This document shows, piece by piece, positions 28,474 to 36,472 of a stretch of 64,000 nt of DNA; within the stretch, counting starts at the first letter, position 1; each line of letters opens with the position of its first letter. A program made the position numbers and the translations under genes. The notes under the pieces were generated by a model. The model saw nothing but the letters and a program-made list of their open reading frames with translations. It made no database searches and was not told the DNA's origin. The stretch spans positions 18,675-82,674 of the forward strand of contig JBBIRF010000006.1 of NCBI GenBank assembly GCA_037441905.1. The letters run 5' to 3'. The stretch comes from Candidatus Aminicenantes bacterium. GTDB lineage: Bacteria; Acidobacteriota; Aminicenantia; Aminicenantales; CALLJL01.

Positions 28474-29286
28474 TCAATTGTTCGAAGCTTTCGCCTGATA
28501 ATAAAACGGCGCCGGAAGCCGGTACTCCGGGACGCCAAGGTTGAGGGCAATTTCCCTGAGCTTCATCTGGATAGCGGCTACGTTATCCGGCCCCATTCGC
28601 AGCAAGTGCTTCTGGGCCTCGCTCAATTCTTCGAGGACAGGGTCAACGATAGTGTAGTTAACCACGGCTCGCTCGACGAAAATTTCATTCTCGACGATGG
28701 GCGTTCGGAGAAGCTCGAGAATAGCCCGGACGAGCGTATCCTCAAAATCAGCCGTCGGATAGCCCAATTCCCGATAGGCTTCTTGAAAGAGTGGCTTCAG
28801 GCTGCGAAAAAGGCTGACACATCCCTTGGTATCGAGGCTGATAAAAACATCGACCACGGGGTCATAACGCCGATAACTGGCCGGGTTAATAACGAAGCGC
28901 TCGCCTCGCTTAGTTACCTGAAAAGGGCCACGCGGGCTAAAAAAGTCAACTTGCCGCCGTGGGCTCTGACCGTTAGCGATATTGTCAACGGCGGCGGCGA
29001 ACTTACGAACGATGTTCTTGGTTTTTAGCCAGGCGGCCAGGCGGGGGTGGGTGGAGATTTCCTTGGTAACTGTCCTGATATAATCATCGCTCAGTTCCAT
29101 GCTTACCGGAGCGACAACCTCAGGCTTAGCCTCCTCCTCGACTTCAGCTGCCTTTTCTTCAACTTTGGCCGCAGGCTCTTCAACCGGTGCCTTTTTTTTG
29201 GTCAGAAAGAAATAGCCGCCAACCGCAACCGCCAGGACGAGGAGGATGATTAAGGCATAACGGCCAACTTTTGTCGTCTCTTCCAT
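28474..29286 (-). CDS. DUF3014-like protein
   Basis: N-terminal TM anchor, RKFAAAVDNIA, NPASYRRYDP, FQEAYRELGYP, QKHLLRMGPDN. Confidence 0.8.
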   Translation of the reverse strand: MEETTKVGRYALIILLVLAVAVGGYFFLTKKKAPVEEPAAKVEEKAAEVEEEAKPEVVAPVSMELSDDYIRTVTKEISTHPRLAAWLKTKNIVRKFAAAVDNIANGQSPRRQVDFFSPRGPFQVTKRGERFVINPASYRRYDPVVDVFISLDTKGCVSLFRSLKPLFQEAYRELGYPTADFEDTLVRAILELLRTPIVENEIFVERAVVNYTIVDPVLEELSEAQKHLLRMGPDNVAAIQMKLREIALNLGVPEYRLPAPFYYQAKASNN

Positions 29287-29295
29287 GTCACCCCC

Positions 29296-30096
29296 TTATT
29301 CTATTTTTTTGAGCCTTATGTTTCCTTTAACGGCGGTAAGACTGACCCTCGCTTTGCCTTCGCCGAGGCGAAAATCAAGCTCGCTTCCCGGCTCGCTTCC
29401 CGTAGGAAAATCGGAGGTAATTCGGCCGTCGGCCGTCCGCGCCTGGATTGTCGCCTGAGCCTGAGGCTCCAACCATAGTTCGATGTCGCCTTCTTGCGTC
29501 CGGAGGTTAACCTCATCCTCCTCTCTTAAGTCCAGAACCTCGGCCTCAATGTCGCCGCCCGCTAAAGATGCGTCGACCGACCCCGAAAAATTATTTATTC
29601 GCAGGCTCGCTTTTTCGGCTCGAATCACCAGCGCTCCATAAAGGTCGTGAACGAAAATATCGCCGTCGTTTATCCTGATTTGCCTGAGCTCAACCTTCCG
29701 GGGCACCCGCAGTTCAACTTTTACCGGAAAAATGGCCTCTTTTCCTTCTTCCACCCGGATATAGATTGAAGAATCCCTGGTTTCAACCTCAAGTCGGGGC
29801 AGCCCGCGTCTTGTCCCGAAAACAACCGCTCCCCGGGTGGAAAAAGGCAATCCCTGGGAGGCGATAACGCGGAGTTCCTCTTTTTCCTGTCCTTTGATTT
29901 CCAGCGAGACTTCGCGAACCTCGGCCAGGAAATCCACCCTCTCCCCGGGTTTAAGCGGGAAGGTCCGGTCGTAAAATATCTGGCCTGGCCAGGAGGCTCC
30001 TGCTTGAGGATAAGGCACGATAACTATGGCGCAGGAGCCACTGAAAAGAAAAGCCGCGGCAACTAAAAGAAAAAACCTAACCTGATTTTCGCGCAC
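29296..30096 (-). CDS. DUF4097-like beta-strand repeat lipoprotein
   Basis: Start moved to GTG 30096 (GGAGG SD); lipobox-like FSGSC; repeats such as GDIEAE, GDIEL, GRITSDF, GNIRL. Confidence 0.7.
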   Translation of the reverse strand: MRENQVRFFLLVAAAFLFSGSCAIVIVPYPQAGASWPGQIFYDRTFPLKPGERVDFLAEVREVSLEIKGQEKEELRVIASQGLPFSTRGAVVFGTRRGLPRLEVETRDSSIYIRVEEGKEAIFPVKVELRVPRKVELRQIRINDGDIFVHDLYGALVIRAEKASLRINNFSGSVDASLAGGDIEAEVLDLREEDEVNLRTQEGDIELWLEPQAQATIQARTADGRITSDFPTGSEPGSELDFRLGEGKARVSLTAVKGNIRLKKIE

Positions 30097-30443
30097 TCGC
30101 CTGCCTCCGCCATTGCCATTTATCTGATGATTTACTAACTTTAAGTATATATATCTCAAATTGAAGAAAAAGGCTACTTGGTAGGCGAGGAAACTTTTTT
30201 AGCCTAAATTCATGATAATCTTTATAATCTTTTTATAATCCTTCTATGCCGACCCCTTCAGCTAACTGTGGGAGAGCTTAAAAAAAATTCCGTCGACCAC
30301 GCAAGTTTCAACCAGTTTCTTAAGTTTTCCTTAAACGCGATAAGTTCTCCCCCCGGGAAGAGGGCAAGGTCCAAAACAGTTTTTTGTTGCTTTATCGCCG
30401 CCTCTCTCCCCTTATATTTTTTGGAAGGAGCTAAGCCAAGAAA

Positions 30444-31196
30444 TTAACCGTAACGTCCGGTGATATAATCTTCTGTCCGACGGTCAGCCGGCGCGGTGAA
30501 CATCTGTTGGGTCTCGCCAAACTCGACCAATTCGCCCAGCAAGAAATAGCCAGTCCAATCAGAAACCCGGGCCGCCTGCTGCATGTTATGAGTAACGATG
30601 ACGATTGTATACCTTTTCTTCAACTCAAACATCAGCTCCTCGATTTTAGCCGTGGCCACCGGGTCGAGTGCCGAGCACGGCTCGTCCATCAATAATACCT
30701 CAGGTTCAACCGCCAGCAGGCGGGCCAGGCAAAGCCTCTGTTGCTGTTCGAGCGACAAGCTGAGGGCATTCTGCCTCAGCCTGTCTTTAAGCTCCTCCCA
30801 GAGAGAGACAGCCTCGAGACTTTTTTGTAATCTTTCCTGGATTACTTGCCCGTCCGCAATTCCATGAACTCTCAACCCATAGGTTATGTTGGCCTCGATG
30901 CTCAAAGGGAAAGGGTTCGGCCTTTGAAATACCATCCCCACCCGTCGCCGCAGCTCGAGAAGGTCTGTTTCTTTTTGATAAATATCCTGACCATCAAAGA
31001 TAACCTGACCAATAACTCTGGCGTCCTCAACCAGGTCGTTCATCCGGTTAAGGGAACGCAAAAAAGTCGTTTTGCCACAACCAGAAGGCCCGATAAGAGC
31101 TGTGATCTTTTGTTTTTCGATGTCCATCGTCACGCTTTTCAGCGCCTGAAACTTGCCGTAAAAGACCGACAAATTCTTAACCTGGATGGCAACCAT
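30444..31196 (-). CDS. pstB: Phosphate ABC transporter ATPase PstB, copy 2 (degenerate signature LSLEQ)
   Basis: [41 protein letters not shown]; signature LSLEQQQ. Confidence 0.95.
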
Positions 31197-31200
31197 CAGC

Positions 31201-31965
31201 TTACCCGAACCTTCCCGAAATATAATCGTTAGTTCTCTTGTCCTGAGGAGCCGTAAACAGCCTGTCAGTCCTGTCGATTTCGATTAGCTCGCCGGAGAGA
31301 AAAAAAGCGGTTCGGTCGGCCACGCGGGCGGCTTGCTTGGTGTTATTGGTCACGAGAATAATCGTGTAGTTCTTTTTCAGGGCCATCAGGGACTCCTCAA
31401 TCTTCATCGTCGAAACCGGGTCGAGACCCGAACAGGGTTCATCCAGAAGGATAAACTCGGGTTGCATAGCCAGCACCCGGGCGATGCACAGCCGTTGCTG
31501 TTGCCCCCCGGAAAGTTTAAGGGCGCTCGAATGGAGACGGTCCTTGACTTCTTCCCAGAGGGCCGTTTTCTGGAGAGAATCTACTACTCTGGATTCGACC
31601 AATTCTTTGTCTTTGATTCCGGCCATTCGGAGTCCAAAAGCTACGTTTTCGTAAATCGAGCGGGGAAGAGCCACTGGCAGGGCAAAAACCATCCCGAGCT
31701 TCCGCCTGAGTTCAACCACGTTAACCTCGGGGGAATAAATATTAACGCCGTCAACTTCAATCAAACCTTCGACCCTGTTCTCGGCCTCCTCTTCGTTCAA
31801 CCGGTTGAGGCAGCGTAAGAAAGTGGACTTGCCGCTTCCGGCCGGACCGATAATTCCGAGGATTTCATTTTTCATGACATCAAAACTAAGTTTTTTTAAA
31901 ACCTGGCGGCCACGGGTAAAGTAGCTAAAATCGCGTACTTTGATCACCACTTCCGGCAGGGCCAT
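31201..31965 (-). CDS. pstB: Phosphate ABC transporter ATPase PstB, copy 1 (His-switch replaced by Asn)
   Basis: True start MALPEVV at 31965 (ATGA overlap with pstA); [36 protein letters not shown]. Confidence 0.93.
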
Positions 31966-32807
31966 CAAGAGTACTTCCTTAAAAACCGATTCATTAAAGA
32001 ATAAGTTACCACGTTGATTAACAGGATGGAAATTATAAGCACCGCCGCTGTCCCGTAGGCCTGGCTCATCGAGATTCCTTCTCTGGCCAAAATGTAGAAA
32101 TGAACCGACATCGTCCGGGAAGAAGAAAAAAGCGAAGTCGGCAGCCGCAAGGCCGAGCCAGCCGTAAAGATGACAGCCGCGGTTTCCCCGATGCACCGGC
32201 CAATGCTCAGGATGATGCCGGTAGCAATCCCGGGCAAAGCCGCCGGGAGAACTACCCTGAAAACGGTCTGCCACTTTGTCCCGCCGAGAGACAGGCTCAC
32301 TTCGCGGTAAGCTTTGGGGACAAACCTGATCGCTTCCTCGCTCGTCCGGATAATCGTGGGTAAAACCATAAAAGTCAGGGTAAGCCCGCCACTCAGGATC
32401 GACCAACCCATTTTCATCTTGGTTACAAACAGAATAAACCCGAAAAGCCCGAAAATAATCGAAGGGATCCCGGCTAAGCATTCCGACCCAAACCGGATTA
32501 TCCGGGTGAGCCTGCCTTCAGTGGTGTATTCAGTTAAGAAAATGGCCGTCCCCACACCGATGGGCGTGGCAATGATAATGGCTAATAGGGTTAAAGCAAC
32601 AGTCCCGATTATAGTCGGAAAAATTCCCCCTTCCTTCCCCATCTCCACGGGGTTGCGGGTTAAAAAATCCCAGCTGAGTACGGGCAAGCCATGTTTGAGA
32701 ATAAAAGCAACAATAAAAGCCAGAAGGCAAACGCTCAGGATTGTAATGAACAAGAAAATTGTCCGGACAACCTTTTCTTCCTTGCGGGGAGCGAGCCAGC
32801 TTCTCAT
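31965..32807 (-). CDS. pstA: Phosphate ABC transporter permease PstA
   Basis: GGIFPTIIGT, LAGIPSIIFGLFG, LPTIIRTSEEA, GETAAVIFTAG. Confidence 0.96.
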   Translation of the reverse strand: MRSWLAPRKEEKVVRTIFLFITILSVCLLAFIVAFILKHGLPVLSWDFLTRNPVEMGKEGGIFPTIIGTVALTLLAIIIATPIGVGTAIFLTEYTTEGRLTRIIRFGSECLAGIPSIIFGLFGFILFVTKMKMGWSILSGGLTLTFMVLPTIIRTSEEAIRFVPKAYREVSLSLGGTKWQTVFRVVLPAALPGIATGIILSIGRCIGETAAVIFTAGSALRLPTSLFSSSRTMSVHFYILAREGISMSQAYGTAAVLIISILLINVVTYSLMNRFLRKYS

Positions 32808-33661
32808 GAGGACATTTTTCTCGAGGTTAGGTTAGCAATCGTGTTCAGAACCATGATGATGATGAAAAGAATCACGCCCGTGGCAAAAAGGGCCTGCCGG
32901 TGCTCGCCGCTCGCGTAGCCCATTTCGAGAGCAATGTTAGAAGTTAAAGTCCTCACCGGGTCGAGAATAGACCGGGGCAGGCTGGTGGCGTTACCGGCGA
33001 TCATGATTACGGCCATGGTTTCGCCCACGGCCCGACCCATCCCCAAAATGATGCTGGCGACGACCCCTGACCTGGCCGCGGGGAGCAGCACCAGGCGGAC
33101 GGTCTGCCATTGAGTCGCGCCCAAAGCAATCGAGCCCTCTCGGTAGGAAGGCGGCAATGCCATCAAAGAATCGATGGAAATACTCAAAATTGTCGGCAAA
33201 ATCATAATTCCCAGGATGACCGCAGCGGCCAGAACGGAAAGCCCCGGGCCGCCGAGATAAGTCCTGATCAAAGGAACGAGGATGACGACGCCAATAAAAC
33301 CATAAACCACTGAAGGGATGCCGGCCAATAATTCGATCAGCGGTTTGACCACGACTCTAACTTTTTTGGAAGTAAATTGGGTCAAATAAATGGCTCCGGC
33401 CAGACCAAGCGGCACGCCAACAAGCATTGCGCCGATGGTAACCAGGAGAGAACCGATGATCATCGGCAAAAGTCCAAAAGAACCTTCGGTCGGATACCAA
33501 TCAAGGTTGAACAAGAAATTTTTCAGCCCATGCCGGAACATGATGGGCAGGCCTTCGCTGAAAATAAATAGAGTGATCAGCCCGAGAACAGAAATTGCCG
33601 AAAAAGCAACGACGAGCAGGGATAAACGGATTAAACGTTCCTTCCCTTTTAATTTTCTCAT
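32804..33661 (-). CDS. pstC: Phosphate ABC transporter permease PstC
   Basis: FGLLPMIIGS, ELLAGIPSVVYG, GMGRAVGETMAV, HRQALFATG. Confidence 0.96.
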   Translation of the reverse strand: MRKLKGKERLIRLSLLVVAFSAISVLGLITLFIFSEGLPIMFRHGLKNFLFNLDWYPTEGSFGLLPMIIGSLLVTIGAMLVGVPLGLAGAIYLTQFTSKKVRVVVKPLIELLAGIPSVVYGFIGVVILVPLIRTYLGGPGLSVLAAAVILGIMILPTILSISIDSLMALPPSYREGSIALGATQWQTVRLVLLPAARSGVVASIILGMGRAVGETMAVIMIAGNATSLPRSILDPVRTLTSNIALEMGYASGEHRQALFATGVILFIIIMVLNTIANLTSRKMSS

Positions 33662-34536
33662 GCCCCTTCCTCTGGCGGCATCTTCTTTTCTTGATTGACT
33701 AAGCGGCCGGGAATCAACCCCTGTTTCGTAATAAGAGCCTGACCTTCTTCCGAGAGGACAAACTGGATAAAATCGGCGGCCAGTCCTTGGGGCGCTCCCG
33801 CCGTTAAAAGAAGAAAGGGCCTTATGAGTTTATACTTCCGGCTGATTACATTTTCTATCCTCGGCTCGACCCCGTCGAGGCGAACCGCCCTTACTCTTTC
33901 GTTTATCAGGCCAAGCGATATATAGCCAATTGCGTAAGGGTCATTGGCCACTACTTCGCGGACTGTCCCGTTTGAGTCCTCAACGATGGCTTTCTTAGCA
34001 ATTCTCGTCCGCCCCATCACCATCTCCTGAAAAGCGCCCCTTGTTCCTGAGCCTTCCTCTCGGGTGACGACATAAATCGGCCTATCCACCCAGCCCACCT
34101 GGCTCCAGGAGGTAATTACGCCGGCAAAAATCTCCCTGGTTGCTTCCAGAGTTAGGTTTCCCACCGGGTTGGTCGGATGAACGATAATAGCCACTCCGTC
34201 CCAGGCAACGACGAATTCAGTCAACACTTTTTCCTCCGGCTTTAGCTCGCGAGAACTCATCCCTATTTCGGCGGCTCCGGTTAACGCCGCCTGAATACCA
34301 GCGCTCGAGCCTCCCCCCTGAACATTGACTACCTTCCCTGGATTATGATGCATAAAGACTTCAGCCCATTGGTCAGCAAAAGGTTGAACACTCGTCGACC
34401 CGGCAACGGTGAGGCTTCCTTCTCTTGACCCCCGGGCGCAAGATAAAAGGCTTGTAAAAATCAAGCAAATTAAGATTACTAGCCCGCCAACCACCGCCTG
34501 CGGCAGACTAGAATTTCTTACACTCTTCTTTTCCAT
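33658..34536 (-). CDS. pstS: Phosphate-binding lipoprotein PstS
   Basis: Start moved to MEKKSVR (34536); lipobox LLSC; AGSTSVQP, GGGSSAG, REEGSGTRGAF. A TTGACA-N17-TATATC promoter candidate lies in the end of the upstream gene. Confidence 0.93.
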   Translation of the reverse strand: MEKKSVRNSSLPQAVVGGLVILICLIFTSLLSCARGSREGSLTVAGSTSVQPFADQWAEVFMHHNPGKVVNVQGGGSSAGIQAALTGAAEIGMSSRELKPEEKVLTEFVVAWDGVAIIVHPTNPVGNLTLEATREIFAGVITSWSQVGWVDRPIYVVTREEGSGTRGAFQEMVMGRTRIAKKAIVEDSNGTVREVVANDPYAIGYISLGLINERVRAVRLDGVEPRIENVISRKYKLIRPFLLLTAGAPQGLAADFIQFVLSEEGQALITKQGLIPGRLVNQEKKMPPEEGA

Positions 34537-34576
34537 GGGTTTTAGGCTAAAGATATATCCTACCAGCATAGAGGTG

Positions 34577-36472
34577 TCAATTTTGAGAATCATCTGCGGA
34601 CAATTCCTCTGGGCTGAGGCTTGATTCAAGCAAACTCAGCTTCGCCTCGAATTCTTGTTTTTTTGCCTCGTATTCCTTGAGCAGCCGGTCCATTTCTTCG
34701 AGCGAGGCATCAAGAGCTCGCTGGGCTGCCTGCCATTTTTTCGTCAGCTCGCCAACTTCCCGGCCTCTTCCCTCTTGAGAAGCCTGGATGATGGCCTCTT
34801 TGAGTCCCTGAGCCTCGCGGTCAAGTTCGCTGATTTGCTTTTCTAACCGTTCAAGCCTCTCTTCAACCGGCCGGAGGGCTGAAGCCCTGGCGGCTATAAG
34901 CAATGACCGCTGGCGGCGAAGCATTTTTTTTGAAGAGGTCGAACGCTGAGCCGGCTTCTGGGTGGAAACCGCTCCCTTCTCCTCCCTCTCTTCTTCCCAG
35001 CCGACCTTTTCCAAAAACCGGTTATAATCTCCTTCGTAAACAAAGACTCGGCCGCTTTCAAAGACCACAAGCCTCTCTGCCAGCGCCCGCAGAATCATTT
35101 CATTATGAGTCACCACCACCACGGCGCCGTCAAAATTGTCGAGGGCGGCAAGCAAGGCGTCGCACGACTCAAGGTCAAGATGGTTGGTCGGCTCATCCAG
35201 GAGAAGCAGGTTCACAGGCCGGACCAATATTTTCGCCAGCAACACGCGGCTCTTTTCGCCGCCCGAGAGCACGGCTATCTTTTTTAAGGCCGCCTCGCCC
35301 TCAAACATCATTAAACCGCAGATTTGCCTGGCTCGCTGGGGGTCAGCCTCAGGGTCGGCAGCCATTACTTCTTCGAGGACAGTCCGTTCAGGGTTGAGCT
35401 CGGCGATCCCTGACTGCTCATAAACCCCGACAGAAACTTTCGGGGGAAGAACCACTTCCCCTTTTTGCGGCCGCAAAATTCCAGCCATGAGCTTCAGAAG
35501 AGTCGTTTTTCCCTGGCCGTTTTTCCCGACAATGAAAACCCGGTCCTTGGCCCCTACGGTCAAGCTGAAGTTGGTGATAATCAGCTTATCACGTTGATAG
35601 CCAAAGCTTACGTCCTCCAGGCTTAGAACATACTTGCCGTGATAAGCCTCGCTCCGGAAAGAAAAATCCAGCGTGGCCAGCTTTTCTAATTTTTCCTTTT
35701 TTTCCATCTTGGCCAGGGTTTTAACCCTTGATTGAACCAGGTTGGCCAATCTTGCCTTAGCTCGAAAACGGCTGATAAATATTTCGATTTCCCGGCGTTT
35801 CCTTTCGTCGTTAATTCTTGTCTTCTCATAAGTCTCTTCCTCCAGAGCCACCTGCTGGTAGTATTTTTCCGTATTGCCCTTTATTTTTTTTACCTTCCGG
35901 CGGTGAATTCCTAAGATGTCGGTGACGACCGCATCCATGAAGCTCCGGTCGTGAGTAACCAGCATCAGCTCTCCTGGCCAGTCCACAAGATAACGGGTGA
36001 GCCAGCGAATAGAAGTGATATCAAGGTAATTATTAGGTTCGTCGAGAAGAAGAAGGTCGTACGGGGTAAGAAGGGCGCGGGCTAAGTTCAGCCGCACCTG
36101 AAACCCTCCTGAAAGCGCCGCGGGCGGCAAGGAAAAATCCTCTCGAGAGAAACCCAGCCCGGCCAGGACTTTTTCGACGCGCCACGTCTCGCCGGCGGCT
36201 TCACCCCGGAGTCCGCGGGCGGCCTCTTCCAGGACAGTTGGCGCCTCGAAGCGCGGCTCTTGTTCGACATAGCCGATAAGATATCTCTTGGGAATGATAA
36301 TTTTTCCCTCGTCTGGCTCCTCCAGGCCGGCGATTAAACGAAAAAGCGTTGATTTACCGTGGCCGTTGCGACCGACAACCCCGACTTTTTCATGGCGATT
36401 CACCTTGAAAGAAACCCCGGCAAAAAGCACCTGCTGGCCGTAGCTTTTCCAGAGGTTCTCGACAACGACCAT
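34577..36472 (-). CDS. ABC-F family ATPase (translation-associated)
   Basis: Two NBDs (GRNGHGKST/LSGG/LLLDEPNN and GKNGQGKTT/LSGGEK/LLLDEPTNHLD), inter-domain linker, C-terminal coiled coil, no TM. Confidence 0.95.
   Translation of the reverse strand: MVVVENLWKSYGQQVLFAGVSFKVNRHEKVGVVGRNGHGKSTLFRLIAGLEEPDEGKIIIPKRYLIGYVEQEPRFEAPTVLEEAARGLRGEAAGETWRVEKVLAGLGFSREDFSLPPAALSGGFQVRLNLARALLTPYDLLLLDEPNNYLDITSIRWLTRYLVDWPGELMLVTHDRSFMDAVVTDILGIHRRKVKKIKGNTEKYYQQVALEEETYEKTRINDERKRREIEIFISRFRAKARLANLVQSRVKTLAKMEKKEKLEKLATLDFSFRSEAYHGKYVLSLEDVSFGYQRDKLIITNFSLTVGAKDRVFIVGKNGQGKTTLLKLMAGILRPQKGEVVLPPKVSVGVYEQSGIAELNPERTVLEEVMAADPEADPQRARQICGLMMFEGEAALKKIAVLSGGEKSRVLLAKILVRPVNLLLLDEPTNHLDLESCDALLAALDNFDGAVVVVTHNEMILRALAERLVVFESGRVFVYEGDYNRFLEKVGWEEEREEKGAVSTQKPAQRSTSSKKMLRRQRSLLIAARASALRPVEERLERLEKQISELDREAQGLKEAIIQASQEGRGREVGELTKKWQAAQRALDASLEEMDRLLKEYEAKKQEFEAKLSLLESSLSPEELSADDSQN

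Follow-up and report, generated by a model that had tools for sequence, protein, structure and literature searches.

The Pst system is the textbook high-affinity phosphate importer as well as an input to Pho-regulon signalling, and it is always drawn with a symmetric homodimer of its ATPase subunit PstB. Cryo-electron microscopy of E. coli PstSCAB (2026) revealed a type I importer with two identical PstBs, one seated on PstA and one on PstC (PDB 9k3x, 9k3y, 9k3s; PMC12976172). Here we analysed the pst operon within a stretch of 64,000 nucleotides from Candidatus Aminicenantes bacterium (contig JBBIRF010000006.1; this whole 64-kb stretch is called the window in the following). The operon is located on the minus strand and contains the same subunit families in the same gene order as in E. 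coli. While E. coli has one pstB and two identical consensus ATP sites, the window has two paralogues in the order pstS-pstC-pstA-pstB1-pstB2, whose products PstB-1 and PstB-2 share 52% identity in an ungapped alignment and carry complementary deviations from the consensus of ATP-binding cassette (ABC) proteins.

Tandem pstB genes as such are known from Firmicutes and cyanobacteria. In Enterococcus faecalis (pstB1/pstB2; PMC12096839) and Bacillus subtilis (PstBA/PstBB; PMC11466899) they are adjacent, non-identical genes inside the pst operon, as in the window, and genetic data from 2025 showed the two PstB copies of E. faecalis to be functionally unequal (PMC12096839). The tandem PstBs of E. 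faecalis are, however, canonical in their motifs, whereas both copies of the window are deviant, each lacking a different half of one site. In this respect the pair resembles heterodimeric ABC exporters and channels (TM287/288, TmrAB, TAP1/2, BmrCD, PatAB, MRP1 and CFTR; PMC7756269, PMC3971661), where two nucleotide-binding domains (NBDs) have their deviations in one site and the other site is consensus. These systems differ from the window pair in their transmembrane fold and by the loss of the catalytic Glu of Walker B, which the window pair keeps. Consensus-plus-degenerate sites are frequent in exporters (PMC3971661, PMC7756269), and work on them has dealt almost exclusively with exporters and channels.

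The degenerate site of the yeast transporter Pdr5 has the signature LNVEQ with Glu at position 4, like LSLEQ, LSGEQ and LQLEQ of the PstB-2 proteins, and its switch His is replaced too (PMC7756269). Unlike the window pair, Pdr5 is a single-chain eukaryotic exporter in which, moreover, neither the Walker A Lys nor the catalytic Glu is kept. The B. subtilis sugar and nucleoside importers RbsA and NupO are likewise bacterial importers, and one of their ATP sites was called degenerate from the sequence (PMC11466899), but they are classed there as type II importers, with the NBDs fused in one polypeptide and with losses at the Walker A Lys and Walker B. Our literature search, for which most subscription journals were outside its reach, returned no paper linking PstB with a degenerate site, and for importers only the remark on the degenerate-looking fused NBDs of RbsA and NupO (PMC11466899).

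The motif register of the window proteins was checked by alignment to E. coli PstB (PDB 9k3x), with which PstB-2 aligns end to end (306 bits). A first-pass annotation of this DNA had described the signature LSLEQ in PstB-2 next to intact Walker A, Walker B and His-switch motifs, as well as a canonical LSGGQ in PstB-1 together with an Asn at the His switch. Codon-by-codon translation reproduced all of these states (positions in Table 1). A third deviation had been overlooked: in PstB-1 the Q-loop Gln is replaced by Ala95, such that GMVFALP is read instead of the canonical GMVFQRP. Neither chain is a full canonical ABC NBD, PstB-1 being without the Gln and the His and PstB-2 without the Gly-Gly of the signature. 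The stretch is present in independent metagenome assemblies that stem from other runs on sediment and subsurface samples, no change being listed for the key codons.

In an NBD dimer each ATP site is built from Walker A and B and the A-, Q- and H-loops of one chain and from the signature of the partner chain (PMC7756269). Since this head-to-tail geometry pairs the PstB-1 pocket with the PstB-2 signature, all three deviations fall, as judged from the sequences, into the same composite site. This deviant site consists of the PstB-1 pocket with Ala95 and Asn207 and of LSLEQ from PstB-2, and the predicted consensus site of Walker A, Q-loop, Walker B and switch His of PstB-2 together with LSGGQ of PstB-1. 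The proposal of the first-pass annotation that both of its defects share one composite site and leave the other site canonical was borne out by the NBD geometry, with the third defect added. Motif mapping hence yielded the pattern by which ABC heterodimers are recognized, i.e. two NBDs with all deviations in one composite site. A PstB-1 homodimer would possess two altered pockets and a PstB-2 homodimer two altered signatures, such that a single complete site would exist only in the mixed dimer. Chiefly for this reason we regard as likely an obligate PstB-1/PstB-2 heterodimer, in which one site is fully consensus and the other, deviant site probably hydrolyses ATP slowly or not at all.

The distribution of the deviations among relatives was followed in two samples of loci, each obtained among the 600 matches listed by the respective search; all counts of loci and of their proteins given below hold for these matches and are not a census. 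The first sample was seeded with PstB-1, using one genome per GTDB species, the PstB-1 family alignment and the patterns KLSGGQQQ and VTNN[TI]KQA. Every PstB was classified in 80 loci, and the signature of the partner was not used in the selection. In 43 of 43 cases, the gene immediately downstream of an intact pstB1 with the Asn switch coded for a PstB-2 whose signature is acidic at position 4. Three more loci with broken or truncated genes were concordant, and one ended at a contig edge. The 28 single PstBs caught by this search were all fully canonical, and one locus (L052) contained a tandem pstB pair with both copies canonical. The second sample was seeded with PstB-2 on metagenome contigs, using search patterns that left out the signature. 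Here, a PstB-1 with the Asn switch preceded each of the 27 acidic-signature PstBs for which sufficient upstream sequence was available, four more were located at contig starts, and the 36 canonical PstBs were all single. The gene order in the loci of the relatives was always pstS-pstC-pstA-pstB1-pstB2. The co-occurrence of the substitutions in relatives, on which the first-pass annotation had made its proposal depend, was thus found for every testable pair of two independently seeded samples.

The nearest homologues, which were drawn from a collection of 5.8 billion proteins, display the same states. A non-Gln residue (mostly Ala) in the Q-loop and a VTNN-type switch were present in 119 of 119 PstB-1 homologues (67–94% identity), and LSGGQ in all but one. 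For PstB-2, signature position 4 was Glu in 119 of 120 homologues, the signatures being LSGEQ, LTGEQ, LSLEQ, LPDEQ and others, and the catalytic motifs were all intact. Literal LSLEQ, the motif named in the first-pass annotation, was confined to the 19 nearest relatives and some distant lineages; the acidic residue at position 4 is general.

Within the sampled loci, the Q-loop residue of PstB-1 was Ala in 51 of 59 proteins of type A, Pro in 14 of 14 of type B and Gln in none, compared to Gln in 143 of 143 PstB-2 and canonical PstB proteins. Despite the altered pocket of its own chain, LSGGQ was kept in 71 of 73 PstB-1 proteins. Likewise, despite the altered signature, all 74 PstB-2 proteins kept the Walker A Lys, Q-loop Gln, Walker B Asp-Glu and switch His. 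Such a reciprocal constraint makes sense only if each chain completes the other. Positions 2 (S/T/P/Q) and 3 (G/L/D/E/A/P) of the PstB-2 signature vary freely and position 4 is almost always Glu or Asp, which looks like selection for an acidic residue rather than simple decay. Family-specific changes of PstB-1 ring its pocket (Walker A Cys to Ser, Gln to Ala, Phe to Leu, D-loop Ala to Gly, His to Asn, and, also near the pocket, Gln to Lys three residues past the switch), and those of PstB-2 are located at the signature.

In a maximum-likelihood tree of 130 PstB sequences all 45 PstB-2-type sequences form one clade with a support of 99 in the Shimodaira-Hasegawa-like approximate likelihood ratio test (SH-aLRT), and 46 PstB-1-type sequences form another (SH-aLRT 98), with the canonical PstBs outside both clades. 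Each paralogue has a single origin. Given one clade per type and canonical PstBs outside, one old duplication appears to be the simplest history of the pair. Within a locus PstB-1 and PstB-2 are 35–55% identical, and their pairwise identities correlate across loci (r = 0.85). PstB-1 evolves faster, with a lower identity than PstB-2 in 92.5% of the comparisons.

The record names of the sequences in both clades span more than 15 phyla; not every bin label is reliable. The record titles comprise Planctomycetota, Verrucomicrobiota, Omnitrophota, Thermodesulfobacteriota and other 'delta' groups, Nitrospirota, Bdellovibrionota, Gemmatimonadota, Poribacteria, Lentisphaerota, Myxococcota, Deferribacterota/KSB1, Firestonebacteria, Wallbacteria, Desantisbacteria, WOR-1 and Aminicenantes. 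A more extreme PstB-1 subtype is nested among them (Verrucomicrobiota, Pirellulales, Poribacteria, Gemmatimonadota and Bdellovibrionota) and is characterized by a Q-loop V-x-P-L-P, Walker B and D-loop CLDEFSIAID, the switch VTNL and partners with LQLEQ or LTLEQ. A homologue search with a Pirellulales type-B PstB-1 returned proteins from metagenome-assembled genomes and metagenomes only and no named cultured hosts. In a representative library clustered at 50%, canonical PstB dominated the result of the PstB-1 query and the Asn switch occurred in about 12 of the 150 best matches, such that breadth is not measurable in this way. As far as could be found, a Pst importer with a motor of one consensus and one deviant site would be ancient, widespread and undescribed.

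Two loci labelled 'uncultured Eubacteriales bacterium' (L003, L004) carry PstB pairs that are 66–70% identical to those of the window. On the tree they group with Aminicenantes, and the taxonomy given for these bins looks doubtful. A third kind of PstB pair was seen in seven metagenome loci (L121, L126, L133, L136, L142, L150, L154). One copy has the signature L[ST][LP]GQ or LNAGQ, with a changed position 3 but the second Gly kept, and the other copy keeps the switch His as VPH[NS] and has Asp or Ala in the Q-loop. In two of six members this 'VPH' copy reads LLDNP at Walker B, i.e. the catalytic Glu is changed to Asn. Depending on the locus, the two genes adjoin each other or are separated by 2–3 kb. 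In two Poribacteria loci (L044, 8560-9363; L056, 8441-9238) the pstB1-pstB2 pair and a permease-like gene are followed by a third, very divergent PstB-like gene with the motifs GPTN[CS]GKST, VFRKP, LS[TI]GQ, IFDEPCGELD and ATNK, and phoU comes after it.

Several observations weigh against an obligate heterodimer with a single hydrolysing site. The loss of the catalytic Glu, called the hallmark of degenerate sites (PMC7544095), has not taken place: the Glu is kept in the window and, like the Walker A Lys and the Walker B Asp, in all 73 PstB-1 proteins. For MRP1, consensus-site mutants of NBD2 with Asn or Gln in place of the His kept wild-type-like transport (PMC7756269), such that Asn alone is no proof of a dead site. 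Excess PstB2 can replace PstB1 of the canonical tandem PstBs in E. faecalis (PMC12096839), and tandem pstB genes alone are consequently no proof of an obligate heterodimer. The PstB-1 of the window has a Thr at the aromatic position of the A-loop, which is aromatic in 63 of the 73 proteins. Finally, in the sister lineage Saccharicenans (L083, 4941-5762) PstB-2 reads an almost canonical LTGGQ, although its neighbour PstB-1 is deviant (VFATP and VTNN). Because its close relatives read LTGEQ, this state looks like a reversion from Glu to Gly. The retained Glu, Lys and Asp and the MRP1 mutants would suit a heterodimer in which both sites hydrolyse at useful rates and the substitutions are tolerated variants tuning the kinetics. 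We consider this unlikely, since the three gamma-phosphate contacts (Q-loop Gln, switch His and second signature Gly) are all altered in the one site and unaltered throughout in the other. The acidic residue at the second Gly moreover matches LNVEQ of the Pdr5 degenerate site and corresponds to G551D of CFTR, and the faster evolution of PstB-1 is expected under a relaxed catalytic constraint.

The motor could also be a PstB-2 homodimer, with PstB-1 being an accessory or regulatory pseudo-ATPase (e.g. a partner of PhoU/PhoR) instead of a stoichiometric subunit. Such a division would agree with E. faecalis, where PstB2 is essential and PstB1 accessory (PMC12096839), and with the PstB-1 score below the PstB equivalog cutoff. 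Both sites would, however, carry the acidic signature, the near-invariant LSGGQ of PstB-1 would be unexplained unless it completes a catalytic site, and further counterarguments are the strict tandem arrangement at 1:1 and the probable translational coupling, which makes this explanation distinctly improbable. That PstB-1 is a decaying duplicate, or that the motif changes are assembly errors, has nothing in its favour beyond the deviating motifs. Both reading frames are full length, the deviant residues are conserved in hundreds of homologues from many phyla, the relatives show neither frameshifts nor random motif states, and the region is found in independent assemblies. On grounds of this conservation and the independent assemblies we rejected a pseudogene or assembly error, to which we attach hardly any probability. 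An asymmetric PstB-1/PstB-2 heterodimer with one consensus and one deviant site is thus highly probable from the motifs, and it is less probable that the deviant site is strictly non-hydrolytic. From the proposal of the first-pass annotation, an obligate heterodimer with a non-hydrolysing site, the asymmetric pair is supported, while the non-hydrolysing state stays conditional in view of the retained Glu.

From these data we infer that a high-affinity phosphate ABC importer formed by PstS, PstC and PstA would be driven by an obligate PstB-1/PstB-2 heterodimer rather than by the usual PstB homodimer. As PstB-1 keeps the Walker A Lys, the Walker B Asp-Glu and a mostly aromatic A-loop, the deviant site probably binds nucleotide. 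Most likely it would still bind ATP and hydrolyse it slowly or not at all. It may serve as a latch that holds the dimer together during turnover of the consensus site, and about one ATP would then be spent per transport cycle. Less probably, and somewhat doubtfully in our view, the deviant pocket could be a purpose-built regulatory site that binds ATP/ADP or senses cytoplasmic phosphate or adenylate charge, gating the single catalytic site and thereby passing the conformational state of the transporter on to PhoU/PhoR signalling. This idea is based on the kept nucleotide-binding residues and on gained residues that look selected and not drifted, namely the near-invariant acidic residue from the partner signature, the switch Asn and the Lys three residues on. 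If it were true, the pair would represent a widespread natural type I importer that spends one ATP per cycle and contains its own allosteric sensor.

In agreement with the first-pass annotation, which had noted an operon without phoU, an iterated PhoU profile found no phoU across the whole window. The layout of E. coli type, with phoU downstream of pstB, is therefore not present in the window, and phoU is likewise absent downstream of pstB2 in the relatives L164–L166. In the nearest relatives (79–90% PstB-2 identity) the arrangement matches that of the window, i.e. pstB2 is followed by genes for proteins with DUF4097 ('toastrack') and DUF3014, for a VTT-domain protein and for SurE, without phoU. 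The DUF4097 and DUF3014 genes are located at 28474-30159 (-) in the window, 8079-9701 in L164, 7839-9463 in L165 and 7811-9432 in L166. At the place of these two genes the Saccharicenans locus L083 has phoU-VWA-OmpA; genes for a VTT-domain protein, SurE and MerR flank the loci of both lineages. Another Aminicenantes relative has a convergent phoU downstream of pstB2. For 45 more distant pair loci among the matches listed, phoU was found in the flank of 33: it comes immediately downstream in 20, immediately precedes pstS in 10 and has another position in the flank in three. The flank of the other 12 is without it. Because most relatives with the pair carry phoU beside it, its absence is a trait of this Aminicenantales subclade and not of the PstB pair. 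The idea of the pair being a substitute for PhoU was rejected for the same reason. Two loci (L017, L027) contain two pst operons head to tail, one with a canonical single pstB and phoU and the other with the deviant pair and phoU, and in L003 a pair operon with phoU is followed by a second pstS-pstC-pstA reaching to the locus end. The presence of single-pstB and pair designs in one genome suggests a division of labour and not a replacement.

PstS, PstC, PstA and PstB-2 all exceed the NCBIfam equivalog cutoffs of the Pst families, which identifies the locus as a Pst importer operon (Table 1). PstB-2 covers positions 2–248 of the 248 positions of TIGR00972 with 391.1 bits (cutoff 343.2). PstB-1 reaches 337.4 bits, slightly under this cutoff, at full length and with TIGR00972 as the best family by far; it is a divergent PstB paralogue. 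An ATGA overlap joins the stop of pstA to the start of pstB1, and pstB2 starts 4 nt past the stop of pstB1 in a frame that is offset by one base. Due to this overlap and the short spacer, pstA, pstB1 and pstB2 are probably translationally coupled, and the arrangement would be compatible with a 1:1 production of the two PstBs. The 426-aa open reading frame listed for PstB-1 (31201-32481, (-)) is an in-frame extension upstream through pstA, the real start being the ATG at 31965. The listed pstS frame opens with TTG; with PstS proteins of 287–314 aa in the relatives, the true start is likely near 34536, ahead of the lipobox LLSC. A scan for promoters and terminators between 29900 and 34900 gave a match count not above that of shuffled sequence and no operon boundary, and the search for RNA runs covering the stretch returned DNA metagenomes only and no expression evidence. 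On the same strand, pstS is immediately preceded by the gene for an ABC-F type protein with two ABC domains and an ABC_tran_Xtn linker (34577-36472, (-)). The same neighbour is found upstream of pstS in L083, L164 and L166.

Table 1. Genes of the pst operon and positions of the ATP-site motifs in the two PstB proteins (window coordinates).
Feature	Position	Strand	Remarks
pstS, phosphate-binding lipoprotein	33658..34629	(-)	TIGR02136, 234.8 bits vs cutoff 206.6
pstC, permease	32804..33661	(-)	TIGR02138, 289.5 bits vs cutoff 196.45
pstA, permease	31965..32807	(-)	TIGR00974, 286.7 bits vs cutoff 193.45
pstB1 (PstB-1), 254 aa	31201..31965	(-)	best match TIGR00972; canonical signature, deviant own pocket
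PstB-1 Walker A	31822..31848	(-)	Lys kept; family-specific Cys to Ser located here
PstB-1 Ala95	31681..31683	(-)	replaces Q-loop Gln (GMVFALP vs canonical GMVFQRP)
PstB-1 signature LSGGQ	31501..31515	(-)	canonical; completes consensus site
PstB-1 Walker B ILLDE	31438..31452	(-)	Asp and catalytic Glu both kept
PstB-1 Asn207	31345..31347	(-)	at switch-His position (VTNNTKQA)
pstB2 (PstB-2), 250 aa	30444..31196	(-)	TIGR00972; canonical pocket, deviant signature
PstB-2 Walker A GPSGCGKTT	31065..31091	(-)	
PstB-2 Q-loop Gln91	30924..30926	(-)	VFQRP
PstB-2 signature L147-S-L-E-Q151	30744..30758	(-)	deviant; Leu149 and Glu150 for Gly-Gly
PstB-2 Walker B LLMDE	30681..30695	(-)	
PstB-2 switch His203	30588..30590	(-)	

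The pair has practical consequences for annotation. With PstB-1 below the equivalog cutoff such proteins receive generic names, and pathway tools may count such operons as containing a redundant duplicate. The carriers, which include Planctomycetota, Verrucomicrobiota, Omnitrophota, Aminicenantes and sulfate-reducing and syntrophic 'delta' groups, belong to lineages that abound in sediment, subsurface and ocean habitats, which are limited in phosphate and energy. If the predicted asymmetric motor is real, it would offer an importer for a direct test of one versus two ATP hydrolyses per transport cycle and would reveal what the second site contributes. It would furthermore relate the asymmetry of the motor to the asymmetric PstC/PstA pair and to PhoU.

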